Assembly (NCBI GenBank): GCA_002366835.1
Contig: DFBZ01000060.1
Location: 83,011 to 147,010, forward strand
Direction: 5' to 3'
Source: Gammaproteobacteria bacterium UBA3067
GTDB taxonomy: Bacteria; Pseudomonadota; Gammaproteobacteria; Pseudomonadales; UBA3067
Length of the DNA: 64,000 nt
Shown piece by piece: positions 10,115 through 55,340 of this stretch. The position numbers and the translations under genes are program-made. Each line of letters begins with the position of its first letter. Within the stretch, counting starts at the first letter, position 1. The notes below the pieces were generated by a model. It saw only the letters and a list, made by a program, of their open reading frames with translations. It was not told where the DNA came from and did not search any database.

Positions 10115-11083
10115 TCACTTTAGAGAAAACCGATTGACCCCTCGCGTACCCACGATTAACAGTTCATTTTTTTCAGTTACAACGCTAGCAACCAGATCAT
10201 GAAAGCCAGGGAATTCCAATTTTTTATAATTCTTATTCTGCGCGGTCTTTTGCAATACCACGCCTCCTTGGCCCAGTAAAACAGAACCTCCATCTGCTAA
10301 CTGCACATGCCCCATTAGTCCATTGATGACCGATACAGGTTCTTTTTCCCAGTTCGTACCAAAATCCGATGAGCGATACACCTGCCCTCTAAGCCCGAAA
10401 GTGATCAGTTCGCTATCTGTCGTTTGGGACAAACCGAACATTGATCCACCATAAGGTAAGTGAAGTGTTTCCCAAGTTTCCCCGTGATTATTAGAACGAA
10501 GGAAAGTACCACTTTCTCCTACTAGAAATAACCACTCATCCATTACGAGCGCGGCATTGATATGGCGATCAAATTCATCCGGTAAGGTGCGCTCTTGCCA
10601 ACTAAGACCATGATCTTTTGTTTCCAACATTAGGCCATAAGCACCCACGGCAAAACCACAACAAGCATCATAGAAAACGATGTCTAACAGCGGGCTTTCT
10701 TTTTCTGGTGCAGCATAAACAATTTCCCAGCTTTCCCCCGCATCGCTACTTTTTAGTATCACCGCATCATGCCCCACCAACCACGCTGTATTTGCATCGC
10801 TAAAATAAATTGCGGTAAGGGTCGCTTGTGAAGGAACTGGCATTTGCTGCCAGTTTTCACCATCCTCAGAGCGGATCACGATACCCCACTCTCCTGCAGC
10901 AAAATAATTATCACCACTTTTGGTGATATCCAGCAACAATGCTTTATCCGCTAAAGGGGCAGTAATAGCAGGGCGTTGTGACGGAAATTCACTCACATTT
11001 TCGCCATAAGACCCCAAAGGGCTTACTGCAAAAAAACCAGCAAGCAAATAAGAAAGTGAGTTTTTAAATTTAAGGAAATCCAC
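10115..11083 (-). CDS. BNR/Ycf48-like beta-propeller protein (secreted)
   Basis: Signal peptide. Five SxDxGxxW (BNR/Asp-box) motifs: SEDGENWQ, SSDAGESWE, TKDHGLSWQ, SNNHGETWE and SSDFGTNWE. Confidence 0.75.
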   Translation of the reverse strand: MDFLKFKNSLSYLLAGFFAVSPLGSYGENVSEFPSQRPAITAPLADKALLLDITKSGDNYFAAGEWGIVIRSEDGENWQQMPVPSQATLTAIYFSDANTAWLVGHDAVILKSSDAGESWEIVYAAPEKESPLLDIVFYDACCGFAVGAYGLMLETKDHGLSWQERTLPDEFDRHINAALVMDEWLFLVGESGTFLRSNNHGETWETLHLPYGGSMFGLSQTTDSELITFGLRGQVYRSSDFGTNWEKEPVSVINGLMGHVQLADGGSVLLGQGGVVLQKTAQNKNYKKLEFPGFHDLVASVVTEKNELLIVGTRGVNRFSLK

Positions 11084-11122
11084 TGCACATCTCCAAACTT
11101 GGGTGTCGGAAAAAGAGGGCTA

Positions 11123-11205
11123 CTATAAGCCACTGCGACAGAGAATCACAACGGCTTATAGGAAGAATAGATATTCACGAAACCACACTATTTGGCTTCG
11201 TGAAT
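11123..11205 (-). terminator. Two intra-operon stem-loops between the DUF1329 and BNR genes (attenuator or mRNA-stability element)
   Basis: Plus-strand sequence. Hairpin 1 at 11123-11161 is CTATAAGCC...GGCTTATAG (9 bp). Hairpin 2 at 11173-11205 is ATTCACGAAACC...GGCTTCGTGAAT (11/12 bp). On the transcribed strand the second hairpin is followed by AUCUAUUCUUCC. Confidence 0.4.
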
Positions 11206-11220
11206 GGGGTAATGGAATGG

Positions 11221-12594
11221 CTAGCGAATGCCTTTTGATCGCAAACGGTTAGGCGTCCAATAAGAGGCAGGTTTTTTAAAGGTGAAATTTCGTGGCTTAT
11301 AGGCGTTATCCAAGCCTTCCACTGAGTAGCGTCCTGACTGCAAGTCGTAGGTTGCTTGTACTGTAGTAGTCATAATGGGCAAGGTGTACAGGTTGAAAAT
11401 CTGACCATCCTGATAACGCCATAGTTCACCCTGATTATCATAGATATCTACCTGTGCAATAGTCCAGCTATCTTCATCAATATAGAAAACACGCTTGGCA
11501 TAAATATGGCGCTCTTCAGGTTTAACGGTTGCTTCTACTACCCACACTCGATGTAGCTCATAACGGCACAAGTCTTGATTAATATGCCCTGGCTGAATCA
11601 TCGCATCGGTGGCAATCTCGGATTCATCCACTTGGAAGTTATAACCGTTATAGCCAATATACATTTCCCGCTTGCCCAGCAACTTCCAGTTGTAACGATC
11701 CAGCGAGCCACCAAAACCATCGGTTTGATCTCGCGTCATTAAACCATCAGCAGAGGGTGCATCATATGAGTATTCAGGCGCACGCCGAACCCGCCTTTGC
11801 CCTGGGTTATAAATCCACGCTTTCGCAGGCTCTTTTGCTTGGTTAATCGTGGCGAGAATGAGGTTCATACTGCCCGCTATCCTTGCTGGCGCTTCAGTAC
11901 GCTGAATTGCCTGCACACTAATATTACCAAACTCTTTTGGATCAGAATTAAGCTGGCCATATCCATAAGTCAATTCACGATACTGCACATTCAGCACGTA
12001 CTTACCATCAGGTTCAACAATGGCTTGGTTTGCATAGTAAATAGCACCGTCGCCACGATAGCGAATAGTATGATTCCAAATTGCCTCCGCGCCATTTTGA
12101 GGAATGGGAAAAGGAAACCCAGTGCCCACAACATTTTGTAAGCCGTAATTCCCATCGTCGCTTAACTCAACCTGTGTTGCACTTTGCAGTGTTCGGTCAT
12201 ACACATTTTGAGGGTAAGATGCAGATCTCCTTGTCGTATAAATGGGCATTTTGAATGTTTCGGGGAACTTTTTAAACATCGCTTTCGCACCTTCGGAAAG
12301 CTGCTCTTCATATTTTGAATAGTTACTGGCATCGATGGTAAAAAGAACCTTATCGTCAGCAAATTTATTCTTATGCCGCTCCCCCGGTGGCACTGTTTCC
12401 TGAGGAATTCCTCCTTGCCACGAAGGAATAGTTCCTGCCGCGTTACCCGCTTTTTCTGCACCGACTGGCGTTAACTCTTGCCCCAGCTTAGCCGATTCTT
12501 CCTGGCTGACTTTGCCGTATGCGGGCATTGTTGCAGTGAATGAAATTAAGGAGGAACCTAGTATTGTACTTGTAATTATTGTTTTAATTTTCAT
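11221..12594 (-). CDS. DUF1329-family (LolA-like) periplasmic or outer-membrane protein
   Basis: Signal peptide. The C-terminal region YELHRVWVVEATVKPEERHIYAKRVFYIDEDSWTIAQVDIYDNQGELWR is characteristic of DUF1329 as I remember it. Sits next to a DUF1302 gene. Confidence 0.75.
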   Translation of the reverse strand: MKIKTIITSTILGSSLISFTATMPAYGKVSQEESAKLGQELTPVGAEKAGNAAGTIPSWQGGIPQETVPPGERHKNKFADDKVLFTIDASNYSKYEEQLSEGAKAMFKKFPETFKMPIYTTRRSASYPQNVYDRTLQSATQVELSDDGNYGLQNVVGTGFPFPIPQNGAEAIWNHTIRYRGDGAIYYANQAIVEPDGKYVLNVQYRELTYGYGQLNSDPKEFGNISVQAIQRTEAPARIAGSMNLILATINQAKEPAKAWIYNPGQRRVRRAPEYSYDAPSADGLMTRDQTDGFGGSLDRYNWKLLGKREMYIGYNGYNFQVDESEIATDAMIQPGHINQDLCRYELHRVWVVEATVKPEERHIYAKRVFYIDEDSWTIAQVDIYDNQGELWRYQDGQIFNLYTLPIMTTTVQATYDLQSGRYSVEGLDNAYKPRNFTFKKPASYWTPNRLRSKGIR

Positions 12595-12608
12595 AGAAAT
12601 ATATCCTC

Positions 12609-14135
12609 TTAGAATGCGTATTTGGCATCAACGGTAATAATATCGCGGTCTTCATAAACACTGTCGCCAAAATAGTCGACGTAGCTGATGCTTGTTGACC
12701 AGGTGTCTACAAATTTTGCCTCAAGGCCCACTTTTATTTTTTTACTGTTATCACTAAACGGCCCCAATGTACCCTTTAGATTCCAGTCATAAGACACATT
12801 GGGCGCTAACGTGATGCCTTCATAGACATCATAATAATCCACCGTCACTAAGCCCGTCACACTCCAAGCCTCACCATCAATACCAGGATTTACGGCATCA
12901 CCTTCAAGCCAGGCCACACCCGCTTCTGCTACGACGGTGATACGGTCAGAACCGAGTACATTATTGAAAAATCGGGTTGCTGTTGTCTGCGCCTGGTAAT
13001 ACCCCATACGCTCATGGGATACCGCAGGTTGTCCAGTTAGTAACGCACCAAAAATACTCGATGATGGCATTGCTACAACAAAATTGGGACGATAGGAGAC
13101 CTCCCCTTGTAATGCTGCTTCTCCTACTTGGTAGTTATAACTTATGCCGTATAAACGTGTTTTTTCCGGATATTCCCAGAAATATGAGGCTGTACTTAAT
13201 ACCGGCACAGGACCCGCAGCAAAAGCAGTCACCGGGCTACCATTTAAGACCGGCGTTTGATTATGGTAGCGTACAAAATAAAAACCAAATTCGGCATAAT
13301 CAAGCTTTGGTATCACTGTCGAAAGCCGTATTCCGAATTGACCGTCATCACTTCCGGTATTATCGGCACCCTTCGGCACACCCCCTAACATTTCATAACC
13401 GGGAATAAACAAATCACCACCATCGCCTTCACCTAGGAGGTCGCTTGGGCTAAAGAAAGTACCCACTGGCGGCAGCTCTGTTTCATCCCATTCACTTTGG
13501 TAATAAAACTCTAAGCCGGTATAGGGAAGGATGTCAGGAAAAGAAAACCAGGCAATCGGCGCAGGAAGCAATCCTTCCTTAACCTCAGAGCCAGGCATCA
13601 GCAAACGCCCTACATCAAGGGGATTAATGGAGTTTATTCCTCCTTGAATAAAAGTACTTTCACCCCAGCTAACCACCTGATTACCAAGCCGCGCCTCAAG
13701 GGTTTTCTCTCCAATCATAAATGTTGAGAACAAGAAAGCATCCAGCAAGCGTAAATCATGGCCAAGGCGACCTTTTGCTTGTTCGGGAATTTCCGCATCA
13801 CTTTTATCTTCAATAGCTGAGTCATAAAGATAGGTGAAGCGAACAAAGGCACCACGTGTATCGTTGGCAATTTTAATATCGTTACTGCCTTTTATAGGCG
13901 AAGAAACGATGTCATTTTTTTCAAAGTTAGCGTCTCCTTTCGAGCCTGCAGCCAACACAGGATCTGGGTCTGTAGTGCGTACGCTAATACCGGCTGAAAG
14001 GCTGGTATCTATGTTTGCTTTGTAGCTGCCAATATCCATCTCAAATGAATATGCAGAGCCTGATGCAATACTCATCGTTGCCATGAACACCGCCGTCTTA
14101 AGCCTGGAAGTTGTTTTTATCGTTGTTTTATTCAT
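12609..14135 (-). CDS. DUF1302-family outer-membrane beta-barrel protein
   Basis: Signal peptide ending SAYS/FE. Alternating beta-strand pattern. Terminal ...VDAKYAF with a C-terminal aromatic residue, the OMP sorting signature. Confidence 0.75.
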   Translation of the reverse strand: MNKTTIKTTSRLKTAVFMATMSIASGSAYSFEMDIGSYKANIDTSLSAGISVRTTDPDPVLAAGSKGDANFEKNDIVSSPIKGSNDIKIANDTRGAFVRFTYLYDSAIEDKSDAEIPEQAKGRLGHDLRLLDAFLFSTFMIGEKTLEARLGNQVVSWGESTFIQGGINSINPLDVGRLLMPGSEVKEGLLPAPIAWFSFPDILPYTGLEFYYQSEWDETELPPVGTFFSPSDLLGEGDGGDLFIPGYEMLGGVPKGADNTGSDDGQFGIRLSTVIPKLDYAEFGFYFVRYHNQTPVLNGSPVTAFAAGPVPVLSTASYFWEYPEKTRLYGISYNYQVGEAALQGEVSYRPNFVVAMPSSSIFGALLTGQPAVSHERMGYYQAQTTATRFFNNVLGSDRITVVAEAGVAWLEGDAVNPGIDGEAWSVTGLVTVDYYDVYEGITLAPNVSYDWNLKGTLGPFSDNSKKIKVGLEAKFVDTWSTSISYVDYFGDSVYEDRDIITVDAKYAF

Positions 14136-26764: not shown

Positions 26765-29700
26765 TCAGGGCAGCTTGAAAAAAGGATCCAGATAATAGGC
26801 CCCCAAGCCGGAAGTCACATCTTTCTCCCACCAGATGTTAAACATATAGACCTCTTCTTCCCTATCCTCATCTGAATCAAAGTCTCCGCTGTCTGCCGTA
26901 ATACTCTCCAAAGAGTACATCTTAGGACTTGTTCCACCCAGATCAACACTGATGTAATCTGTCGTTAAGTCAATTGTCCACGCACCTGCTTCCTCAACAG
27001 AGCCGTTTGACAACCACTCATAGGTGTTAGGCGAGCCTTGAGCAAAGAGCATACGTTCCGTTTGACCCCATACGATTGCAAATTCCCCCACAATGTCTGC
27101 CTCTGCTGTGATATCAACACCATTCGCCGATTCTGCTATGAACGCATCGAAGGGAACGAGACGTAAAGTTAAATAAGAGAGATCCATCGCACCGTTTTGA
27201 ATCACCACCACCTCCGGATGATAAGTATCATTAAACTCAGCCAAGGCAATTTGGTGCTTATCACCGCTACTGGCAATAGTAATTTGCAGGTTTCCATCCC
27301 CATCCACCAACCATGTCATCGCTTCATCTATCGAACCATCATCAGCCCCGTTAGAAAGCAACTCTTGCTCACGCACCCATCGACCACCATCACCGCTGCC
27401 ATCAAACACGTAGTTATCAATAACGAAATGGATATCCGTAACAAACTCTCGTCCAATTCCAAAACCCGCCACACCAAAGCTGCTACCACTGGTTATTGTG
27501 CTATTGGCAGCAAAATCAACGCCGTTACCACTGGCTGCAAGAAATTCGGCAGGCAAAGGTGCTGGTGCCGTGTAGCTAAAGGCTGTTTTAAACTGATCCA
27601 GCGCAACAGTATTGAACATCAGATCCTGCTCAACCGATCCCGCTGCAAAGACGGCTCCGCTGCGAACAATATTTCCGTATCCACCGAGCTCAGTAATGGT
27701 ATCCACAAAGAAGAAATGCTTAAGATCGCCATCCTCAATATCAACATTACTTAGGTCAACCACTGCCTGCGGCGTAACGAACTCAACGACCTCTACGCCA
27801 CCTTTGTGTATCACTTCGTAGCTAACGGTAATACCTGTGTCGACATAGGAGTTTTTGTAGAAGCGCACCGTGGGGTTGGCCCCAGCCACCGTACCATCGC
27901 TTGAAACAAGGTAAGCATTAACGTCATATTCATTACTACCATCATTGCCACGACCGACCCATATACCCACTCCATTACCGTTAGCTGGGTCGAAACTGGC
28001 AGAGCTGCTTATAATGTCACTCAATGTGGTTGCCGGCACAGGCTCCCAGTTACCACTGCCAACAGGCTTTTCTAACTGGTCTACGGGCACAATACCTTCG
28101 CAGGAAAGTCCCGTTTCATCAAACCAGTCATCCCAACGACTCCAGTTATTGTCACACCAAAAAATATAGGCCTCAGCAGTATTACTTTCGCTTGCTAGGT
28201 AAGCTCGCGCACCTGTGGCAAAGGAGGGGTTTCCAGGAAGGCCATCTGCAAAATTACCGTCGAGAATATCCAGCATGATCCTGTCTTCAATGTTGTATTC
28301 CTCAAGGTCTACATGCCTTATTAGGTGATCAACAATTACTCCAGATTTTGTTAATTTCAGAACAGCCGTTTCAGGTGCTGCGGCATAACCATCAATTTGT
28401 AATATGTCGTCGGCAATATCTACATCTCCACTGCTGCTCAGATAACCTTCTTCGCCCACCGCATTCGCTGTTGAGTCGACCCATACCGTATCGATCTCAT
28501 CCCAGGAGAACTGGGTTTCCAGAGCATCGGAAATAACTCCGTATTTAAAACCCCAGTCTCTATCAGCTTCCAGCCAAACAATGCCACTGGCACCAATGGG
28601 CTGCTCTCTGACGTCTACTGGCAGGGTCGCACTGACGTTAAATATTGCCGTACACGCTGAGCCGCCAGTATTCGTATTGCCGGTCCAAGTTCCGGTAAAT
28701 TTGCCAGCGCCCTCGCTGAATGTTCCGGTAAAGCTGTCTGAAACATTAGCCGTAGCATCCACGCCCGAAAAGGTAAAAGTGCCATCAGGCTGTATGGTTC
28801 CTGTGTATAGCCAGTCATCATTCATGTTACTAACGGTCAGAGCAGTACCAACCTGTTCAAACTGCCAGAACTCGGAACCGCTTTCACCAACAACACTCAG
28901 GCAACTACTACTGTCGACATCCCACTCGGTGCCCGAATCAGCACTGTAGTCTTGCAGGTAAATACCGCTCATGTCAGGGATTGCTGCTTCACAGGCATCG
29001 CCTATGCCATCGCCGTCATCAACACCGTTGGTATCTAGCTGATCTGAGTTAGAAACTAAAGGACAGTTATCAGTAGCATCACCGACGGTATCGCTGTCGG
29101 TATCTTCATTAAACGGGTCGGTGCCTAGACCTAGCTCATCAACATCCAACACGCTATCGTTGTCGTCATCGGCATCACAGGCATCGCCTTCGGTATCACC
29201 GTCGTTGTTAACCTGGTTAGTATTGGCAATCTCTGGGCAGTTATCCAGATCATCAATCACTGTGTCTAAGTCAGTGTCCAATTCACATGCATCGCCTATG
29301 CTATTTGAGTTCAAATCAGCTTGATCTGCATTAGCTGTAAATTGACAGTTATCAGGGGCAGCATCCAGCACGCCATCATTGTCATCATCGGTATCACAGG
29401 CATCACCTTCGGCGTCGCCGTCGTTGTTAGCCTGATCGGTGTTTGCATCAACCGAGCAGTTATCACCATTGTCGCCCACGGTATCGCTGTCGGTATCAAC
29501 TGTTTCAGCTGGATCTGCTGGGAAGGCATCAGCATTATCACCCACGCCATCGCTGTCAGTATCCGTAGTTTCAGCCGGGTCTGCTGGGAAGGCATCGGCG
29601 TTATCACCTACACCATCACTGTCGGTATCAGTTGTTTCAGTCGGATTTACCGGGAAAGCATCGGCGTTATCACCTACACCATCGCTGTCGGTATCTGCAG

Positions 29701-31696
29701 TTTCAGCTGGATCTGCTGGGAAGGCATCAGCATTATCACCCACGCCATCGCTGTCGGTATCCGCAGTTTCAGTCGGATCTACCGGGAAGGCATCGGCATT
29801 ATCACCCATACCATCGCTGTCGGTGTCCGCAGTTTCAGCTGGATCGGCTGGGAAAGCATCAGCATTATCACCCACGCCATCGCTGTCGGTATCCGCAGTT
29901 TCAGTTGGATCTGCTGGGAAGGCATCAGCATTATCACCCACGCCATCGCTGTCAGTATCCGTAGTTTCAGCCGGGTCTGTTGGGAAGGCATCTGAATTGT
30001 TGCCCACGGTGTCGCTATCTGTATCTAGGGCCTCTAAAGGGTCGGTGGGGAATTGATCTACACCATCAGAAAAACCATCCGAGTCTGTATCCCACAGTAA
30101 AGGATCAGTTCCATCCAAACCTTCCTGGGTATCAGAAACACCGTCTCCATCTTTGTCGGTGTCACTGTTATCGCCTATATTATCACCATCCAAATCGCTG
30201 TCTTCGGCACTATCCAAGGGAAACAAATCATCTACATCGAGCACACTGTCCTCATCATCATCGCCATCACAGACATCACCACCGTCGCCTAAACCATCGG
30301 TGTTCAGCTGGTCAGGGTTAGCGTTCAATGGACAGTTATCTGTACCGTCATTGATAACGCCATCGCCGTCGGCATCGTTTGAGCAGGCATCGCCTTCGCC
30401 ATTCGCATCCGTATCTATTTGATCCGTATTGGCAGCCAATGGACAGTTATCAACTCCGTTATTTATAGTATCGGAATCACGATCCAGGGCTGGATCTAAA
30501 AAGGCACTGTTATCAAGGGGGTAGTCATCATCATTATCCGCCCAACCGTCATTATCGTCATCAGTGTCGGCATTGTTACCAATAAAGTCTCCATCCGTAT
30601 CAAGCTGTTCGGCTGGATCTTCTGGAAACGCGTCATCAGCATTTAGCACTGAGTCGCCGTCAAGATCAGAGTTTGTTTCTGCTGGCTCTGACTCCACATT
30701 AATCGTGTCAAGCGCGGTAGTGTCTGTTGTTTCTCCAGTAACGGTAGTTTCGTCTCGCAACTCTTGCTCAATATCAGCAACCAGAATAGTCGTGTTAGGA
30801 ATGGTCAAAGTTGCTGGATCCTGGCTTAACACGTCTAGTGCAGGTGCTTCGTAGACCGTACTCGCAACTCCACCGACGGTTCCATCAATTTCACCATCGG
30901 CCAAATCATTGGCCAGCTCAGTTAAAATTTCACCTGTATCACCAGTAACAGATAACTTTTGCATCTCATAAGCTATAGCCGTTAATGCTTCTATAGCAGT
31001 TCGGTATGCGGCCACGGAAGCCTGCTCTTCTGTTGTGTCAGTCGTACTGTCAATCAAAGGAGGCGTATCAAAAATATCAACCGTTTCATCCAAACCAAAA
31101 CCCATGGTGGATTTGACCTGAGAAGCAGCGGTAAGCAAGGCGGCTTCAAAAGAAGCGCCATCAAGCGAAGCTGGGTCTGCAATGGCAATATCCACCGCCA
31201 TGGTTGTCAGCGGTGTTGCATAAATCTGTTCACCGGAATCCAGCAATGCCTGGGTTACCACCGTTCGCATAGTAGTGATAACAGGCGCCAGACCTGTAGT
31301 AATGTCGGTTGTATCAGTATCGGAGGTAACTTCTAGAATATAAGGAGGGGCCAAAGGAAAAGCTAAAGATAGATTCTGTATCTGCGCCTGTGCATTGGTA
31401 GAGCCGCTTCCTGCAACACTGCCTTTCATTCCAGGCCCTGATGGTTCAATGTTGTAGACAGTCACCACGGCGTTGGCCAGCGGCCCTTTAATGCCACCCC
31501 CTGTTAGTGCGAGTGTCGCGGTATCGGCGTTGGTATTACCGCCAGTATTATTCGTACCGTTTTCTTCTGCAGCAGGATCATTGCGGTGCGAATCGCTACA
31601 CCCTGCGAAAAAAGAAAGCAGCACTAGATAAGTAATTACGTGAACCAGACTGCGGGTTGGTACACATTGAGCTAGGCGCATTATAAATCCCCTCAC
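26765..31696 (-). CDS. Giant (1643 aa) surface lipoprotein with thrombospondin type-3 (TSP3) Ca-binding repeats and an uncharacterised ~780-aa C-terminal region
   Basis: Lipobox LSFFAGC followed by S. Dozens of DxDxDGxxDxxD motifs, both the cysteine-containing form (DNCPLxxNxDQxDxDxDGxGDAC) and a Cys-free form (DTDSDGVGDNADAFPADP). Confidence 0.8.
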   Translation of the reverse strand: MRGFIMRLAQCVPTRSLVHVITYLVLLSFFAGCSDSHRNDPAAEENGTNNTGGNTNADTATLALTGGGIKGPLANAVVTVYNIEPSGPGMKGSVAGSGSTNAQAQIQNLSLAFPLAPPYILEVTSDTDTTDITTGLAPVITTMRTVVTQALLDSGEQIYATPLTTMAVDIAIADPASLDGASFEAALLTAASQVKSTMGFGLDETVDIFDTPPLIDSTTDTTEEQASVAAYRTAIEALTAIAYEMQKLSVTGDTGEILTELANDLADGEIDGTVGGVASTVYEAPALDVLSQDPATLTIPNTTILVADIEQELRDETTVTGETTDTTALDTINVESEPAETNSDLDGDSVLNADDAFPEDPAEQLDTDGDFIGNNADTDDDNDGWADNDDDYPLDNSAFLDPALDRDSDTINNGVDNCPLAANTDQIDTDANGEGDACSNDADGDGVINDGTDNCPLNANPDQLNTDGLGDGGDVCDGDDDEDSVLDVDDLFPLDSAEDSDLDGDNIGDNSDTDKDGDGVSDTQEGLDGTDPLLWDTDSDGFSDGVDQFPTDPLEALDTDSDTVGNNSDAFPTDPAETTDTDSDGVGDNADAFPADPTETADTDSDGVGDNADAFPADPAETADTDSDGMGDNADAFPVDPTETADTDSDGVGDNADAFPADPAETADTDSDGVGDNADAFPVNPTETTDTDSDGVGDNADAFPADPAETTDTDSDGVGDNADAFPADPAETVDTDSDTVGDNGDNCSVDANTDQANNDGDAEGDACDTDDDNDGVLDAAPDNCQFTANADQADLNSNSIGDACELDTDLDTVIDDLDNCPEIANTNQVNNDGDTEGDACDADDDNDSVLDVDELGLGTDPFNEDTDSDTVGDATDNCPLVSNSDQLDTNGVDDGDGIGDACEAAIPDMSGIYLQDYSADSGTEWDVDSSSCLSVVGESGSEFWQFEQVGTALTVSNMNDDWLYTGTIQPDGTFTFSGVDATANVSDSFTGTFSEGAGKFTGTWTGNTNTGGSACTAIFNVSATLPVDVREQPIGASGIVWLEADRDWGFKYGVISDALETQFSWDEIDTVWVDSTANAVGEEGYLSSSGDVDIADDILQIDGYAAAPETAVLKLTKSGVIVDHLIRHVDLEEYNIEDRIMLDILDGNFADGLPGNPSFATGARAYLASESNTAEAYIFWCDNNWSRWDDWFDETGLSCEGIVPVDQLEKPVGSGNWEPVPATTLSDIISSSASFDPANGNGVGIWVGRGNDGSNEYDVNAYLVSSDGTVAGANPTVRFYKNSYVDTGITVSYEVIHKGGVEVVEFVTPQAVVDLSNVDIEDGDLKHFFFVDTITELGGYGNIVRSGAVFAAGSVEQDLMFNTVALDQFKTAFSYTAPAPLPAEFLAASGNGVDFAANSTITSGSSFGVAGFGIGREFVTDIHFVIDNYVFDGSGDGGRWVREQELLSNGADDGSIDEAMTWLVDGDGNLQITIASSGDKHQIALAEFNDTYHPEVVVIQNGAMDLSYLTLRLVPFDAFIAESANGVDITAEADIVGEFAIVWGQTERMLFAQGSPNTYEWLSNGSVEEAGAWTIDLTTDYISVDLGGTSPKMYSLESITADSGDFDSDEDREEEVYMFNIWWEKDVTSGLGAYYLDPFFKLP
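29475..30046 (-). repeat. In-frame 66-bp tandem repeat, about 8.5 units (22-aa unit DTDSDGVGDNADAFPADPAETA)
   Basis: Units begin at 29475, 29541, 29607, 29673, 29739, 29805, 29871 and 29937, an exact 66-bp phase. Most are roughly 85-95% identical at the nucleotide level by eye. Confidence 0.9.
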
Positions 31697-43947: not shown

Positions 43948-47975
<4,028 letters not shown>

Positions 47976-48116
47976 AAAGAGCTTAACGTTATAGAAAATA
48001 ACAATTGCCAAATTAATTACCGCCTAGATCAGCAGGTTAGTAAAAGCACGCAAGCCTTCATATAAGCTCTAACATAGCTAGGCTTGCGCCTCCCCTGTGT
48101 GCAACAAGGATGTTCA

Positions 48117-50978
48117 ATGCAAGCACATGTTCAGCCCCCCACACCACAACACTTAAGCTATTCCCCCCGCTCACTCCAGCTCCGTCTTTTTATTTTTTTA
48201 GCGTTACTGCCTTGTCTGCTGCACCCAACAAATAGCCATGCAATTGATCCACGACTAGACTGGTTTAGCTTAGCAACGCCGCATTTTATTATTCACTTCC
48301 CTGAAGAAAACGAGGCGCTTGCTGAGCTTATTGCCGAAAGAGCCGAGAGCGCCCACAAAGAACTCTCCCCCTGGTTTAATTGGCAGCCAAAAGAAAAAAC
48401 CCACATCGTCCTTAATACGAGTGAAAGCCGAGCAAACGGTTCCGCTTTCGCCATCCCTTATAATCGCATCGAACTAAACATGGTCATTCCCGAAGCAGGA
48501 GGCAACCTGTCAGACTTTGCTGATTGGTGGACACTGCTAATCACCCATGAGTACGCACACATCCTCCACCTAGATAAAAAAGTGGGAGTTCCTCTTTTCC
48601 TGCGCCAAACCCTTGGCCGTGTTCCAGCATTTTATCCCAACCTGTTTCAACCTCGCTGGATTATTGAAGGCCTCGCCACCTATATTGAAACCGATAATGA
48701 AAATCAAACCGGCCGCGGCCAAAGCAGCGCCTTCAATATGATGATCAACGAAGAACTCGGCCAGGGTTTAAAATCACTGCGCCAAATCAACATTCATGAA
48801 AGCAACTGGCCCTACAGCAGCGCCTACCTGTATGGCAGCTATTTTTTTGAATTTCTTGAACAGGAATATGGTGAAGAAAAAACCAAAGCCTTTATTGCTG
48901 AATACAGCAACAACATCATCCCCTTCGCACTGAATACCACCAGCAGCACTGTTTTTGACAAATCTCTTTACAGCTTGTGGAAAGACTATGAACACTATTT
49001 AAAAACCAATATCGCCATCCCCGCCTTAGCTGGAGACAAACAACAGGCGCTTACCGAAAAAGGATACCTACAAGGCCCATTACAAAGCGACAATGACAGG
49101 GCGCTATTATTTATTCAAAACAATGGTGAACGTCACACAGCACTATGGAAAATAAACCAACAGGGAGACAAAGAGAAAATAACAGAACTGCAATCAGGTG
49201 CATCCTTCGACTTCCACAAGCGCGGTGGTTTCATCATCAGCCAAGCGGAAGTCTGCGAAGAATATAACGTATATTATGACCTCTTTATTCTCACCAAGAA
49301 CGACACTACTCCACAACAAATTACGCACTGCGCACAATACCACTACGCCAGCTGGCACCCATCGGGAAATAAAATTGCAGCCATAAAGGTAAACCCTTTA
49401 TACAGCCAAATCGACCTACTTAAAAAAGATGGCTCCTTCATAAAGACCCTCTGGAAAAGCAATAAAAACGAGCGCCTCAGTGCTTTAGACTGGAATCAAG
49501 ATGGCAGCAAAATAATCACCTCTTTACATAAAACTAATACTGGATGGAACCTTTATGAGCTAGATACTAACAAAGGCTCTATGCGCAGCCTGACAAATGA
49601 CTGGGCGGAAAAGTCTGCGCCACGGTACCAGAAAAATGGGCACATCATCTATTCCGCCGATTACGATGGCGTGAGTAATATCTATAAAATAAATTCGACA
49701 AGCGGAAAGGTTTTAAAACTTAGCCAGGGAAATAAAGGCAAATTCCACCCCCTATTGACTGAAAAAAACGAAACGTCACACCTAAGCTATATGCAATATG
49801 GCCCCACAGGCCTCAACATATACCAACAAAAAGAAATCATCGCTAATGCCTACACCGTTAAACCTGATTTACGGATAACAGAAAATAAAAAGGCAACAGA
49901 AAAAGTTACGCCATATTCACCAGCAAACACAGCACAGGGCTACTCCCCATGGCCATCTTTAATCGCACCCAGCTGGATACCGAATTTTTTTGTTTCCAGT
50001 GATCAAAGTTTTATTGGAGCGATACTTATGGGTGCCGATGCACTGCAAAACCATAAGTACGAAATCTCCCTCGCCTACGAGGCGCAATATGAACAGCTCT
50101 ACAGCAATATAAACTATCAATACAATGACCGCCTATTTATCAACTATGAACATGATAAGCGTTATTTTTTCTCACAGGAAAGGCTCGACTTCATTCTCAA
50201 CACAGACCAGATCGAAGCTTACTACCTCGTCCCAAGTTCAACACTGGAAGCACAATGGAATATTCTGCTCGGTGGCGAGTTTATTTATAATTCATGGGAT
50301 CAATTCTCACCTTTTTTTATTAAGCCGGATTCATCACGAAGCCAGCTACTTGGCGTTGCTGTTTTATACAACAGTAGCCACCGCTATTTACGAGGTATTA
50401 GCGATACTGAAGGGCGACAAGTTTATGTGGCGGCGGAAAATATCCGTCTATTTGACAATAATATCCGTGGCGATAGCCTGACATTTGACTGGCGCGAATA
50501 TATCCCCCTTAGCGACGCTCACACTCTTGCGTTGCGTGGCGTCCATGCCCGAAGCTCCTCACCCAGTGTTCGCTATTTTCTTGGCGATGATTTCAGCGAT
50601 CCTTTCAATAATATCGGCAACATATTCAATCGCCAAGATTACCCCTTAAGGGGATACGATCAGTCTCTCGAAAAACTCAGCGGGAATCGCTTATTCCTAG
50701 GCAGTGCCGAGTGGCGCTTCCCCATTACCAATATCGAACGCACACTTATGTCTCCTCCGGTGGGAATACAAAAAGTACATGGCAAGCTGTTTATAGAATC
50801 TGGCGCAGCCTGGACAGCGGGTATCAATGAGAGGGAGTTCTACAGCAGCAGGGGCGTCGAACTAATCGCTGAAGCAAGATTATTTTATTACTACCCCGTT
50901 AATCTGCGCTTGGGTTACGCAAAAACAGAAGAAAAAGACGGGGATAACTTTTATGGCAGTCTTGGGGTATCCTTCTAA
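48117..50978 (+). CDS. Predicted outer-membrane protein: HExxH metalloprotease-like region, TolB-like beta-propeller and Omp85-type barrel
   Basis: Signal peptide ...PTNSHA/ID. THEYAHILH with a downstream IIEGLATYIE. WD40-like/TolB repeats (SWHPSGNKIAAIK, DWNQDGSKIITS, YSADYDGVSNIYKIN). DYPLRGYD, an Omp85 L6-like (V/L)RG(F/Y) motif. C-terminal ...GSLGVSF. The ORF opens at TTG 48084. Confidence 0.6.
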   Translation: MQAHVQPPTPQHLSYSPRSLQLRLFIFLALLPCLLHPTNSHAIDPRLDWFSLATPHFIIHFPEENEALAELIAERAESAHKELSPWFNWQPKEKTHIVLNTSESRANGSAFAIPYNRIELNMVIPEAGGNLSDFADWWTLLITHEYAHILHLDKKVGVPLFLRQTLGRVPAFYPNLFQPRWIIEGLATYIETDNENQTGRGQSSAFNMMINEELGQGLKSLRQINIHESNWPYSSAYLYGSYFFEFLEQEYGEEKTKAFIAEYSNNIIPFALNTTSSTVFDKSLYSLWKDYEHYLKTNIAIPALAGDKQQALTEKGYLQGPLQSDNDRALLFIQNNGERHTALWKINQQGDKEKITELQSGASFDFHKRGGFIISQAEVCEEYNVYYDLFILTKNDTTPQQITHCAQYHYASWHPSGNKIAAIKVNPLYSQIDLLKKDGSFIKTLWKSNKNERLSALDWNQDGSKIITSLHKTNTGWNLYELDTNKGSMRSLTNDWAEKSAPRYQKNGHIIYSADYDGVSNIYKINSTSGKVLKLSQGNKGKFHPLLTEKNETSHLSYMQYGPTGLNIYQQKEIIANAYTVKPDLRITENKKATEKVTPYSPANTAQGYSPWPSLIAPSWIPNFFVSSDQSFIGAILMGADALQNHKYEISLAYEAQYEQLYSNINYQYNDRLFINYEHDKRYFFSQERLDFILNTDQIEAYYLVPSSTLEAQWNILLGGEFIYNSWDQFSPFFIKPDSSRSQLLGVAVLYNSSHRYLRGISDTEGRQVYVAAENIRLFDNNIRGDSLTFDWREYIPLSDAHTLALRGVHARSSSPSVRYFLGDDFSDPFNNIGNIFNRQDYPLRGYDQSLEKLSGNRLFLGSAEWRFPITNIERTLMSPPVGIQKVHGKLFIESGAAWTAGINEREFYSSRGVELIAEARLFYYYPVNLRLGYAKTEEKDGDNFYGSLGVSF

Positions 50979-51017: not shown

Positions 51018-51186
51018 CTAGCAGGCTGTTGAAATTCGCTGAATTGAGTCAGATATAAGGCAAAATCAAGCGAAAAAGCGGAGTTTACACGTGTAAATGA
51101 GTACTTTGAGTGCGATTTTACCGAGAGTAGGCGCCTTAAGCGACGCAGTAGATGGCCAAGTCAGTAGAATTTCAACAGCCTGCTAG
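51018..51186. repeat. Structured intergenic repeat, copy B (169 bp)
   Basis: Perfect 20-bp arms CTAGCAGGCTGTTGAAATTC and GAATTTCAACAGCCTGCTAG. About 90% identical to copy A, plus a ~22-nt internal insertion (CGAGAGTAGGCGCCTTAAGCGA). Confidence 0.85.
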
Positions 51187-51220
51187 AAAAGCCCTGTGGT
51201 TTATTAATAGAGGAAACAAA

Positions 51221-51913
51221 ATGCTTAACTGGCAAGACATTGATACCGTATTACTGGATATGGATGGCACCCTGCTGGATTTGCACTTTGACAACTATTT
51301 CTGGCTTCAGTACCTGCCTGAAAAATATGCCTCGACACAAAACATTTCACTGGATGACAGCAAAGAAGCGCTGCGGCAACGCTACCAGAGCCAAAGTGGC
51401 AAACTGAATTGGTACTGCCTTGATTTTTGGGGCAAGGAGCTGGCATTAGATATTCTGGAGCTAAAACGAGACATTCGCCACTTGATCGCGTTCCGGCCCC
51501 ATACCGAACACTTTCTGAAGCACTTAGAGGCCAACAATAAAAAGCGCATTTTACTCACTAATGCACACCCAGATAGCCTGCAGCTCAAGCTCGAACACAC
51601 CCAGCTGCATGAATATCTGGACGTCATACATAGCAGTCATCACTTCAACAAACCCAAAGAAGACCAGCAATTCTGGCCAGCTTTCCTAAAAAAAGAACAC
51701 CTGGATATTTCCCGCACGCTGCTTATCGATGACAGCATCGCGGTACTGGATAACGCCCGCGAATTTGGCTTTCAACACCTCCTTACAATAGGCCAACCGG
51801 ATAGCCAGCAAGCGCCAAAATCCAACGAAAATTATAAAACCATTCACTGTTTTACCCATATCACGCCAAACACTGGAGATAGCCTGCCTGTCCAGAAGCC
51901 AGCATCCCAATGA
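51221..51913 (+). CDS. yrfG: HAD-family GMP/IMP nucleotidase
   Basis: From MLNWQDIDTVLLDMDGTLLDLHFDNYFW... to RILLTNAHP and LLIDDS, collinear with E. coli YrfG as I remember it. The ORF-track start at 51152 lies inside repeat copy B and is rejected. Confidence 0.75.
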   Translation: MLNWQDIDTVLLDMDGTLLDLHFDNYFWLQYLPEKYASTQNISLDDSKEALRQRYQSQSGKLNWYCLDFWGKELALDILELKRDIRHLIAFRPHTEHFLKHLEANNKKRILLTNAHPDSLQLKLEHTQLHEYLDVIHSSHHFNKPKEDQQFWPAFLKKEHLDISRTLLIDDSIAVLDNAREFGFQHLLTIGQPDSQQAPKSNENYKTIHCFTHITPNTGDSLPVQKPASQ

Positions 51914-52314
51914 CAGAAAAAAACAACCCAGAAACAAGCTCTGTTCGCATCGACAAATGGCTATGGGCAGCCCGTTTCTTCAAATCCCGCTCCATCGCCC
52001 ATGATGCCGTCACCGGAGGCAAGGCCCACCTCGCTGGACAGCGCGTCAAAGCCAGTCGGGCCGTACGAGTCGGCGATACCCTGCAAATACGCCAAGGCTA
52101 TGACGAAAAAACAATTATTGTCACCGGGCTTTCAGAAAAACGCGTATCAGCCACACTGGCCGCATTACTTTATGAAGAGACCTCAGAAAGCATCAGTAAA
52201 AGAGAGTCCGAGCGGCAACAGCGCCAATCCCTACCTAATCACTCGCCCAGCAAAAGACCAAACAAAAAAGAACGCCGACAGATAAAAGGCTTTCGCCAGA
52301 ACAACCAGGACTAA
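51910..52314 (+). CDS. hslR: Ribosome-associated heat shock protein Hsp15 (S4 domain)
   Basis: VRIDKWLWAARFFKSRSIAHDAVTGGKAHLAGQRVK...LLYEETSESISKRE. ATGA overlap with yrfG. Confidence 0.85.
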   Translation: MTEKNNPETSSVRIDKWLWAARFFKSRSIAHDAVTGGKAHLAGQRVKASRAVRVGDTLQIRQGYDEKTIIVTGLSEKRVSATLAALLYEETSESISKRESERQQRQSLPNHSPSKRPNKKERRQIKGFRQNNQD

Positions 52315-52490
52315 GTCCTTCAAGCTCGAAAACAGTGTCGTCCAGGCAAATAATCGGGGGGATTAATCCTCCTCAGCATCTGTGTCCGTTACAAAAAACA
52401 GCCGCGTATTCACAGCCTGCACGTTTATCAAACAGTCTAATTTTGGTAGCATCCCTTCCCCCGAAATGAGATCAGATTTGCATTTATCTT

Positions 52491-53390
52491 ATGAACAACA
52501 AAGACTACAGCCAGCGTTTTATTTTTGAAGACCTCGATATCAGAGGAGAGTTTGTTCACCTAGAGAGCAGCTATCAGGCCGTCCTGTCAAATGGCGACTA
52601 CCCTGAAGTCATACAGCGTCTGCTGGGCGAACTGGTCTGCGCATCTGTTCTGCTCAGCTCCATCCTTAAATATGAAGGTCGTCTCGCGATTCATGCCCAA
52701 AGTGAAGGCCCCGTAAAGCTCCTGGTGGCAGAATGCAGTGATAAAAACGGCGTCAGAGCCATCGCACACTTTGATGAAGAGCGCCTGACAGACTTCGATC
52801 AAAACACCCCTTTAAGCGCCTTAATTACCGGCGGACAACTCGCCATCATGATTCAGCCCGCCAAGGGAAAGCAGTACCAAGGTATCGTCCCCCTTAGTGG
52901 TAATACCCTTGCGGAATGCTTAGAAGGTTACTTCGAGCAGTCCGAGCAGCTGCCAACCCGAATTTACCTTGCAGCGGATCAACAAAAAGCCGGCGGGCTC
53001 TTGCTTCAACAACTACCCGGGAGCCCTGACGGCGTAACGGAAGAAGCCAGCAACCAGTGGGAACACATCACCACACTGGCAAACACTACCCGCTCCCAGG
53101 AGCTAACCGAACTCTCTGCAGACACCCTGCTCAGCAGGCTATTTGTAGAAGAAAGCATTCGCGCCTTTGAAGTTCAGAGTGTCAACTTCCAGTGCCGTTG
53201 CTCAAAAGAAAAAACCCGCTTTGCACTTTCCGCCATGAAGCGCCAAGAGCTGGAGGATATTCTTGAAAAGAAACAATGCATTGCAGTGGACTGCCAGTTC
53301 TGCACCACCCGATACGAGTTTACACGTGACGACCTGAAGCTCCTGGATCAACAAGAAGCACCTCAGAACCAGACTGCCACCCTCCACTAA
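52491..53390 (+). CDS. hslO: Redox-regulated chaperone Hsp33
   Basis: RFIFEDLDIRGEFVHL. C-terminal zinc centre CRCS...CQFC. Confidence 0.9.
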   Translation: MNNKDYSQRFIFEDLDIRGEFVHLESSYQAVLSNGDYPEVIQRLLGELVCASVLLSSILKYEGRLAIHAQSEGPVKLLVAECSDKNGVRAIAHFDEERLTDFDQNTPLSALITGGQLAIMIQPAKGKQYQGIVPLSGNTLAECLEGYFEQSEQLPTRIYLAADQQKAGGLLLQQLPGSPDGVTEEASNQWEHITTLANTTRSQELTELSADTLLSRLFVEESIRAFEVQSVNFQCRCSKEKTRFALSAMKRQELEDILEKKQCIAVDCQFCTTRYEFTRDDLKLLDQQEAPQNQTATLH

Positions 53391-53786
53391 AACCCATTCA
53401 GGCAGGGTACATACTGCCACCCTGAATATGGAGGAGTAAAAGCACCTACAGATGCCAATGCACTAAGATTAAGCAAACCTTGTCTTCTTTAGCAATTTCC
53501 AATTTTTTTTGGCATAATAAGCGCCCATTTAAACAGATCAAGCGGTCGTGGTGTAAAGAGAACAGCCTTGAATCTCGGCCACGCGCCTTAACAGGCAACG
53601 AAGACCACTATCCAGGTTAGCGCTAGCAGTCTCAACACTGCATAGGAAGTATTCGGGTTAACACTCACATGGCCGCAAAAATCACCCCAAAATGGTTTGC
53701 TCAGCACCTGCACGGAGCAAGCGTTACACGACTTGACCACTCAACCGTAAAATATAGATAGCTCAAAGCTAAAGGATCAAATCGCA

Positions 53787-55340
53787 ATGACTCGTCACTC
53801 AGAAACCCCTTCTGTTTACCAAGATCTCAGCCCAGCGCAGCTTCAGGAACTAGCCATCTTGCGCGGAGAAGGACGCCTGTCCGACACTGGCGCATTGGTT
53901 GTAAATACCGGCGCTCGTACTGGTCGCTCACCGAAAGACCGCTTCATCGTTGACGAGCCAAGCACTGCCGAGCACATTCACTGGGGCCCAGTAAACCGTC
54001 CTTTCCCAACTGACAAATTTGATGCTCTTTGGGAGCGCGTTGAAGAGTTCACCTCCGCAGACACTGTTTTTAAGGCAGACCTCCACGTCGGTGCCGACCC
54101 TGATCACTACCTGGCCGTTAAGGTCAGCACCCAAACTGCTTGGCACAACATGTTCGCCCAAACCATGTTTATTCGCCCAACGCATTTCAACCCGAAAGGT
54201 AAAGAGCCGTGGCAAATTCTGCATGCACCTGAATTCATCTGCGAGCCAGAGCGCGATGGCACCAACAGCGAAGGCTGCGTCATCATCAACTTTGCCCAGC
54301 GCAAAGTACTGCTCGCAGGCATGCGATATGCTGGCGAAATGAAGAAAGCCATGTTCTCTGTACAGAACTTCCTCCTTCCCGAAAAAAATGTTTTGCCAAT
54401 GCACTGCGCAGCAAATGTTGGCGAAGATGGCGGGGTTGCATTGTTTTTTGGACTATCAGGAACCGGAAAAACCACCCTTTCGGCAGACCCTGAGCGCTAC
54501 TTGATTGGTGACGATGAGCATGGCTGGGACAAAGGCAGCGTGTTCAATATCGAAGGCGGCTGCTATGCAAAGTGCATTAACCTAAGCAAAAAAAATGAGC
54601 CTGTAATCTGGGACGCCATCAAATTCGGCACCGTACTTGAGAATGTAATCGTTGATGAAGAGGCTCGCACCTCTGATTATAACGATGTATCCCTCACCCA
54701 GAATACCCGCGCTGCCTACCCGCTTGAGCACGTAGAAATGCGCCAGGAGGCCAACCGCGCAGGTGAGCCCAAGCACGTTATCTTCCTGACATGCGACCTG
54801 ACCGGCGTACTTCCTCCCGTATCCAAGTTAAGTAATGAAGCTGCGGCTTATCACTTTCTGAGTGGTTACACTGCGCTAGTTGGCAGCACTGAAATCGGCT
54901 CATCTGCCGAAATCAAATCCACCTTCAGCACCTGCTTTGGCGCACCCTTCTTCCCCCGCCCTGCCAAAGATTACGCAGAGTTACTGATAAAACGTATCAC
55001 TGAGTTCAACTCCAGCGTATTCCTAGTAAATACTGGCTGGACTGGCGGGCCCTACGGCGAAGGTGAGCGCTTCGACATCCCCACCACACGAGCCATTATT
55101 CGCGGTATTCTTACCGGCACCCTTGATAATGTAAAAACCACGCACATTGACAAAATAAACCTTGATGTCCCGGTTGCGGTGCACGGTGTAGAAACGGAAT
55201 TACTGATTCCTCAGAACACCTGGAAAGACCCGAAAGCCTACGAAGAAAAAGCGAACGACCTGGCCAAACAGTTCCAGGAAAACTTCGCGAAATACGACGT
55301 ACCTGAAGAAATCGTTAAAGCCGGCCCTCAAGTCGACTAA
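53787..55340 (+). CDS. pckA: Phosphoenolpyruvate carboxykinase (ATP)
   Basis: [35 protein letters not shown]. Confidence 0.97.

Follow-up and report, generated by a model that had tools for sequence, protein, structure and literature searches.

The question raised by this locus is what a single bacterial protein could do with a predicted zinc protease, a TolB-like propeller and an outer-membrane barrel of the Omp85 type joined in one chain. The gene in question lies at positions 48117-50978 on the plus strand of a 64,000-nucleotide stretch of contig DFBZ01000060.1 from Gammaproteobacteria bacterium UBA3067 (the whole stretch is hereinafter the window). As given by the list of open reading frames (ORFs) and the translation, it is a complete coding sequence of 953 amino acids (aa) plus the stop codon, and the product is a protein of the WD40-like Omp85 family; all features of this protein discussed below are on the plus strand. 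That one outer-membrane protein combines these three modules, with the barrel being of the BamA type, is nearly certain. What such a protein does is a matter of graded probability: a reading that appears to have a somewhat better than even chance is that of an outer-membrane-tethered, propeller-gated periplasmic metallopeptidase, with the location, activity, gating and substrate class being those that we infer below. The first-pass annotation of the window had described the ORF as encoding a single polypeptide, and the local sequence is in full agreement. The frame is open without interruption from 48084 to 50978, with 953 codons from the ATG at 48117; a Shine-Dalgarno-like AAGGA (48106-48110), read from the sequence, is located 6 nucleotides upstream of this ATG; and the strand opposite the ORF is full of stop codons. 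An identical protein is also present in public metagenome data, in two Logan assemblies. Scans for promoters and terminators around the gene were uninformative.

When the protein is analyzed on its own, Pfam detects no Omp85 or peptidase domain and only weak propeller matches, and a sequence search of the PDB returns nothing useful. These missing matches reflect a limit of sensitivity and not the absence of the domains, and the architecture was resolved with family profiles and structure prediction. The full-length AlphaFold2 model, built on the family alignment, has a mean predicted local distance difference test score (pLDDT) of 87.9 and a predicted template-modeling score of 0.89. Conservation was assessed in 52 aligned full-length homologs that diverge down to ~23% identity. 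Among these, Pfam identifies Omp85 (PF01103) in 17 (best match 1.3e-12), PD40 (PF07676) in 37 and Peptidase_MA_2 in 4, and none of the 22 Pfam families with matches in these 52 sequences is POTRA. The modules that had been read from the sequence alone, namely a metalloprotease-like region with HExxH and a downstream Glu, a TolB-like propeller and an Omp85-type barrel, with the first two in the place of POTRA domains, are all recovered by these approaches, and every motif named in that reading (THEYAHILH, IIEGLATYIE, LRGY and the terminal SLGVSF) is present in the translation.

The N-terminal module (aa 43-306; 48243-49034) is a metallopeptidase domain of the gluzincin type (MA clan, M1-like), as indicated jointly by AlphaFold2, Foldseek, Pfam matches of homologs and conservation. 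In the full-length model this region appears as an alpha/beta domain, and a separate AlphaFold2 model of residues 43-306 has a pLDDT of 89.7. All 50 matches listed in a Foldseek search of the PDB with this domain model are peptidases of family M1 (IRAP, ERAP1/2, ColAP, LTA4H and APN), M9 (collagenase G) or M61, at probability 1.00 and with query-normalized template-modeling scores of 0.5-0.6. The HEYAH motif (48546-48560) contributes the predicted zinc-binding and catalytic residues H144, E145 and H148; the EGLATYIE motif (48666-48689) contains the probable third zinc ligand, E184, as well as E191; and the YLYG motif (48825-48836) contains Y237, a candidate transition-state-stabilizing tyrosine which, judging from what we know of M1 enzymes, is presumably the catalytic one. 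H144, E145, H148, E184, G185 and E191 are invariant in all 52 homologs, and so are Y237, L238 and G240. Given that an HExxH motif is expected only 0.05 times by chance in a protein of the same composition, and yet is invariant across such divergent sequences, its presence here is not fortuitous. In the hhalign comparison, HEYxH falls on HEYFH of Escherichia coli PepN and EGLA on KEGLT of the same protein. In the search of the PDB with the N-domain profile, the M1 peptidase 3cia aligns in register, its WLNEGFTSYVE with WxIEGLATYxE and its pYvkG with YLYG. The features that define gluzincins, that is, HExxH and a downstream Glu in a thermolysin-like fold, are all found in the model, with the zinc ligands being predicted ones.

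The closest comparison for this domain is with the M1 aminopeptidases (PepN, LTA4H, ERAP/IRAP and tricorn-interacting factor F3), with which it shares the thermolysin-like catalytic fold, the HExxH motif, the E-G-x-x-x-Y-x-E motif, which includes the third zinc ligand, and a conserved tyrosine further downstream. There are also differences. The second His and the ligand Glu are separated by 33-35 residues in the WD40-like family (the distance between H148 and E184 is 35 residues in 35 of the 52 members and 33 residues in 13) compared to 18 in M1, and the N-terminal beta-domain and the C-terminal helical domain of M1 enzymes are absent. The protein was therefore not assigned to family M1, since neither GxMEN nor HExxH-x18-E is found in it, and is better described as M1-like in fold and motif.

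Conservation is highest in the peptidase domain, where 14% of the alignment columns are at least 90% conserved, compared to 6.9% in the barrel and 1.8% in the propeller. Because H144, E145, H148, E184, E191 and Y237 are invariant and this domain is under the strongest constraint, peptidase activity is likely. The same evidence bears on a reading in which the protein would be a non-catalytic scaffold, comparable to BamA-BamB or to TolB as a tether to Pal or peptidoglycan, with HExxH binding a structural zinc or being vestigial. Such a role would fit the non-enzymatic binding function of TolB, the closest relative of the propeller, and a platform was indeed the role favored in the text of Heinz and Lithgow (2014; Front Microbiol 5:370; PMC4104836). 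However, pseudo-enzymes usually lose their catalytic residues, whereas in this family the HExxH motif, the ligand and general-base Glu residues and the Tyr are all preserved across very divergent members and are located in the most conserved region, so that a mere scaffold appears very doubtful.

The middle module (aa 307-582; 49035-49862) is a six-bladed TolB/PD40-like beta-propeller. DSSP analysis of the model reveals ~24 strands in six groups between residues 318 and 579; the family profile matches the TolB structures in the PDB at E 2e-36; the query itself produces a partial match to the NCBIfam TolB model (TIGR02800) at 1.4e-15; and Foldseek with the whole model retrieves TolB propellers at probability 1.00. 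TolB of the Tol-Pal system is the closest relative of this module in both sequence and structure, with the six-bladed PD40 propeller in common; the fusion protein differs in that the N-terminal alpha/beta domain of TolB is missing and the propeller is covalently joined to the peptidase and the barrel. Assignment to TolB itself was rejected: the query reaches 57 bits with TIGR02800, for which the cut-off is 343, the propeller part alone matches, and the neighboring genes encode DUF349, zinc-dependent alcohol dehydrogenase (Zn-ADH), HAD, Hsp15 and Hsp33 proteins rather than components of a tol-pal operon. Proteins of this family also bear the precomputed Pfam labels PF26549 (Tricorn_N) and PF26550, which are faint propeller-family matches; since the PD40 propeller is what gives rise to these labels, they do not indicate a tricorn protease.

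In prolyl-oligopeptidase, DPP-IV, acylaminoacyl-peptidase and the tricorn enzymes, the entry of substrates is controlled by a PD40 propeller, and the propeller of TolB binds disordered peptides. A gating function is proposed for the present propeller on these two grounds: most likely, it would act as a selector or gate through which peptides or unfolded polypeptides reach the peptidase.

The C-terminal module (aa 619-953; 49971-50975) is a 16-stranded beta-barrel of the Omp85 type, according to DSSP, Foldseek, hhalign and the Pfam matches of homologs. DSSP assigns 16 long strands in residues 619-950, which is the number that the first-pass annotation had proposed to look for in an AlphaFold model. 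Foldseek with the whole model retrieves the barrels of TamA, BamA and Sam50 at probability 1.00, and the hhalign comparison of the family profile with E. coli BamA yields E 1.6e-5, with the last ~260 columns corresponding to residues 502-808 of the 810 in BamA; in a search of the PDB with the full-length family profile, BamA and TamA appear only at E 0.14-0.32. The sole long loop in the model is loop 6 (L6; aa 814-857; 50556-50687), which comprises 44 residues between strands 11 and 12 and is placed as in BamA. It contains the LRGY motif (aa 844-847; 50646-50657), in which L is conserved in 51, R in 48, G in all and Y in 49 of the 52 sequences. The FIESG sequence (aa 892-896; 50790-50804), within the strand formed by residues 882-899, is the FxD/ExG motif of strand 13, with F in 48, D or E in 47 and G in 48 members; the query has E for D. 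In BamA-type barrels, as seen in BamA structures, FxDxG on strand 13 docks loop 6. The C-terminal strand (50946-50975) ends in Phe, as in the beta-signal of outer-membrane proteins (OMPs): the last residue is aromatic in 50 of the 52 sequences (45 F, 4 Y and 1 W), and Y946 is retained in 47.

The barrel is preceded by a short linker (aa 583-618; 49863-49970) that takes the place of POTRA domains. In the model, it contains two short helices only, with low pLDDT at residues 587-596, and the beta-alpha-alpha-beta-beta unit was not detected in it by DSSP; across the family, the linker has a median length of 36 aa, with a range of 33-66. Thus, BamA and TamA share with this protein the 16-strand barrel, the C-terminal aromatic residue and two sequence motifs, (V/L)RG(F/Y) in the loop (L6) that joins strands 11 and 12 and FxDxG on strand 13, whereas the fusion lacks POTRA domains and is not found in a bam or tam gene context. 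Because both are missing, OMP-insertase activity is not implied. For lack of POTRA, the protein cannot be classified as an orthologue of BamA or TamA, although it is an Omp85-barrel protein nonetheless.

On which side of the membrane the N-terminal modules reside can be addressed from the parity of the strands. Strand 1 is placed as starting on the periplasmic side because the number of strands is even and LRGY lies in the sixth of the odd-numbered loops, which is extracellular in BamA. The protease-propeller module would then be periplasmic as well, given that it is connected to strand 1 by a linker of ~36 residues and that the lumen is occupied by L6. The best precedent is PlpD, the representative of PL-Omp85, which likewise combines an Omp85 barrel with an N-terminal enzymatic module instead of a POTRA array; PlpD differs in keeping one POTRA domain, in having a phospholipase rather than a metallopeptidase with a propeller, and in forming homodimers. 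Experiments placed the enzymatic module of PlpD in the periplasm and did not bear out the secretion model proposed earlier (PMC11116518). Judging from barrel parity and this precedent, the protease-propeller module is more likely to be located in the periplasm than on the surface.

This placement runs counter to the suggestion of a self-inserting surface protease that accompanied the initial description of the gene. In its general form, that suggestion would have the barrel export the N-terminal module to the surface, in a manner similar to type V secretion, for degradation of extracellular proteins or peptides. Heinz and Lithgow raised translocation as an option for Omp85 proteins without POTRA by analogy with PlpD (PMC4104836), and many of the carriers are environmental chemolithotrophs and Myxococcota, for which such proteases would be useful. 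The PlpD analogy has since been overturned by the periplasmic location of its enzymatic domain (PMC11116518), however, and strand and loop parity points to the same side. Furthermore, ~540 folded residues on a 36-residue linker would have to pass a barrel with L6 in its lumen, and no linker helix or cleavage motif of the autotransporter type was seen. Taken together, a surface protease appears quite improbable. The other suggestion made in the initial description, a substrate-capturing outer-membrane machine, is a possible reading.

The preferred reading can accordingly be worded as follows. The Omp85 barrel would tether the M1-like gluzincin zinc peptidase and the propeller at the periplasmic face of the outer membrane, and the peptidase, predicted to be catalytically competent, would act as an outer-membrane-anchored periplasmic protease, probably with a role in the turnover or quality control of envelope proteins. 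Several observations weigh against it. Similarity of the peptidase domain to M1 enzymes is marginal at the sequence level (E 0.053 for the N-domain profile against the PDB and E 0.035 for the hhalign comparison with PepN); these alignments served for the registration of motifs and not as proof of homology, and for this reason the gluzincin fold rests on predicted structure together with motifs. The Glu of GxMEN, the exopeptidase motif of M1, has no counterpart, with ANGSA found instead and no conserved Glu at the aligned position. For the WD40-like Omp85 subfamily, the literature yields catalogue mentions only and no functional study. Finally, the conserved motifs in L6 and on strand 13 hint at a role of the barrel beyond that of a passive anchor.

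The last of these observations leads to a reading in which the barrel itself would be functional. It would engage the beta-signals of stalled or misfolded OMPs at its lateral seam, and the propeller-peptidase module would degrade them, so that the protein would correspond, in one polypeptide, to BepA working at BAM. LRGY in L6 and FxD/ExG on strand 13 are strongly conserved and would be needless in a mere anchor, although they may serve barrel stability alone; it also fits this reading that the fraction of highly conserved columns is greater in the barrel than in the propeller (6.9% vs 1.8%). The look of the protein as a BamA-BamB fusion was remarked upon by Heinz and Lithgow (PMC4104836), and BepA provides the precedent of a periplasmic metalloprotease operating at an Omp85 machine (PMC13655028). 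The likeness to BepA is a functional analogy, with no homology claimed: BepA is a separate soluble zinc metalloprotease of the M48 fold with a TPR domain and is not fused to a barrel. In addition, the protein lacks the POTRA domains with which BamA and TamA handle substrates and partners, and in 80 homolog loci, bam, tam and chaperone genes were not found as conserved neighbors. On balance, a role in OMP quality control of this kind is the foremost alternative but is unlikely. Its fullest version, a self-contained device in one polypeptide whose active barrel captures OMPs at the seam and passes them to its own propeller-gated zinc peptidase, is less probable still; if true, a single-polypeptide OMP quality-control device would be widespread in environmental Proteobacteria, Myxococcota and Nitrospirota.

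The architecture had initially been taken to be unusual, but it is not new. Heinz and Lithgow distinguished ten bacterial subfamilies of Omp85/TpsB, one of them designated 'WD40-like' (WD40-Omp85; PMC4104836). The main text of that paper deals with the WD40 part only, the TolB-like propeller and the analogy to a BamA-BamB fusion, and favors the platform role; Table S2 gives architectures in which PF01103 is combined with at least one PF07676 repeat; and Table S3 reports, for dozens of members, matches to the BamA/TamA barrel (4k3b, 4c00) and to TolB (2w8b, 2ivz), together with a 'best aminopeptidase hit' (1z5h, 4kxd, 3qnf, 4fgm or 4ar1) at ~99% Phyre confidence (PMC4104836). One of the latter, 3qnf, is also among the Foldseek matches listed for the N-terminal domain, and overall the present searches led to the same structural relatives. 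The present protein has the same modules in the same order, without POTRA, and nothing in its architecture differs: the barrel, the TolB-like propeller and the aminopeptidase-type N-terminal domain are all found, as is the lack of POTRA. It also has full-length homologs from Gallionellaceae and Myxococcales, taxa that are represented in the published list of WD40-like members (D5CSQ4 and A9FGN9, for example) as well. The protein therefore belongs to the WD40-like Omp85 subfamily, as assigned by architecture. The subfamily is cited as uncharacterized in PMC5582053, PMC11358297 and PMC11116518; thus, with respect to the concern of the first-pass annotation that the family might already be functionally characterized, it has been catalogued, and no functional study was found in the literature. 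What is added here, and is not in the 2014 paper, is the invariant catalytic site and the topological argument for a periplasmic location.

One other subfamily invites comparison. PF00149 is, as we take it, the calcineurin-like metallophosphoesterase family and not a family of HExxH peptidases. This is the domain found in metallo-Omp85 (PMC4104836), which also lacks POTRA and has an N-terminal metal-dependent hydrolase; it has no propeller and is a different family.

The WD40-like subfamily is large. Among the indexed candidates, 262 homologs match the query at E <= 1e-3, nearly all of them ~950 aa long and aligned end to end, and the N-domain profile detects 9,364, 6,478 and 2,639 representatives of 50% clusters at E <= 1e-3, 1e-10 and 1e-30, respectively. 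Among the best 150 of these matches, the complete proteins are almost all 920-1010 aa long with the domain at the N terminus, which makes the three-part design the rule; entries of lesser length probably stem from truncated contigs. A scan of one genome per species with a degenerate motif identified relatives in at least 586 species genomes. Most carriers are Gammaproteobacteria (Chromatiales, Ectothiorhodospiraceae, Acidiferrobacterales, Thioalkalispiraceae, Pleionea, Alcanivorax and Marinospirillum), with further ones in Gallionellaceae, Burkholderiales and Mariprofundus; metagenomic relatives come also from Myxococcales, Nitrospirota and Bradymonadaceae. The closest GTDB species representative is ~36% identical to the query, which is a divergent member of the subfamily.

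The genome neighborhood does not point to dedicated partners. The gene order is DUF349, Zn-ADH, fusion gene, HAD, S4/Hsp15-like, Hsp33, PEPCK, Tex and GshA, and the rest of the window contains other housekeeping genes, as in an ordinary gammaproteobacterial chromosome segment. None of the window neighbors recurs beside homologs (0-2 of the 80 loci per gene), and across these 80 loci there is no common neighbor beyond lineage-local blocks; the maximum, a ubiB-like gene in 11 of the 80, is judged to reflect lineage synteny. Given the lack of conserved neighbors, the fusion gene seems to act as a stand-alone unit.

Several features of these loci and of the window can be recorded in their own right. 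In ~10 of the 80 loci (L005, L013, L015, L069 and others), the homolog is located directly downstream of a block of ubiE/ubiJ/ubiB-like genes on the same strand; these names come from reading the ORF sequences and not from Pfam, and the block is absent from the window. Downstream of the fusion gene, at 51152-55340 (plus strand), a HAD phosphatase, an S4-domain (Hsp15-like) protein, Hsp33 and PEPCK are encoded in this order, which we take to resemble the E. coli arrangement yrfG-hslR-hslO...pckA. Homologs of hslR or hslO are present within 6 kb of a fusion homolog in 3 of the 80 loci (L006, L065 and L067), probably reflecting lineage synteny and not a functional link. Two genes upstream of the fusion gene, at 43948-46866 (plus strand), is the gene for a 972-aa protein with four DUF349 repeats (E 1.5e-34), whose stop codon overlaps the start of the Zn-ADH gene (46863-47975), an overlap that suggests translational coupling. 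On the minus strand, a 1,642-aa ORF (26765-31696) contains thrombospondin type-3 (calcium-binding) repeats (Pfam TSP_3, E 5.9e-40) and probably encodes a very large repeat protein that is secreted or located on the surface, and a single cluster at 7670-14135 includes an MMPL/RND-like transporter (7670-10114) and a DUF1302 protein (12609-14135).

The N terminus of the fusion protein (aa 1-42; 48117-48242) is a probable Sec signal peptide, read from the translation. It consists of a basic n-region and the hydrophobic stretch LFIFLALLPCLL, followed by SHA, after which cleavage is likely, and ID. The leader has low pLDDT and is not conserved, with conservation in the family beginning at ~aa 43. 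Judged from these leader features, the signal peptide named in the first-pass annotation is plausible. An 'LLPC' sequence within the leader was considered as a sign of a lipoprotein and rejected, as it makes a poor lipobox and its Cys lies in the unconserved leader.

The present locus adds a divergent member to the subfamily and no new principle, the architecture having been known since the 2014 catalogue (PMC4104836). Among the Omp85 proteins with enzymatic modules in place of a POTRA array, only the patatin type, represented by PlpD, has been studied experimentally. The WD40-like subfamily is large and has a fully conserved predicted catalytic site, and with a confident model and clearly identified residues it is directly testable, the candidates being E145, H144, H148, E184 and Y237. 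In a broader perspective, Omp85 proteins that have enzymatic modules and no POTRA show that the BamA-type barrel has been re-used beyond membrane-protein insertion.

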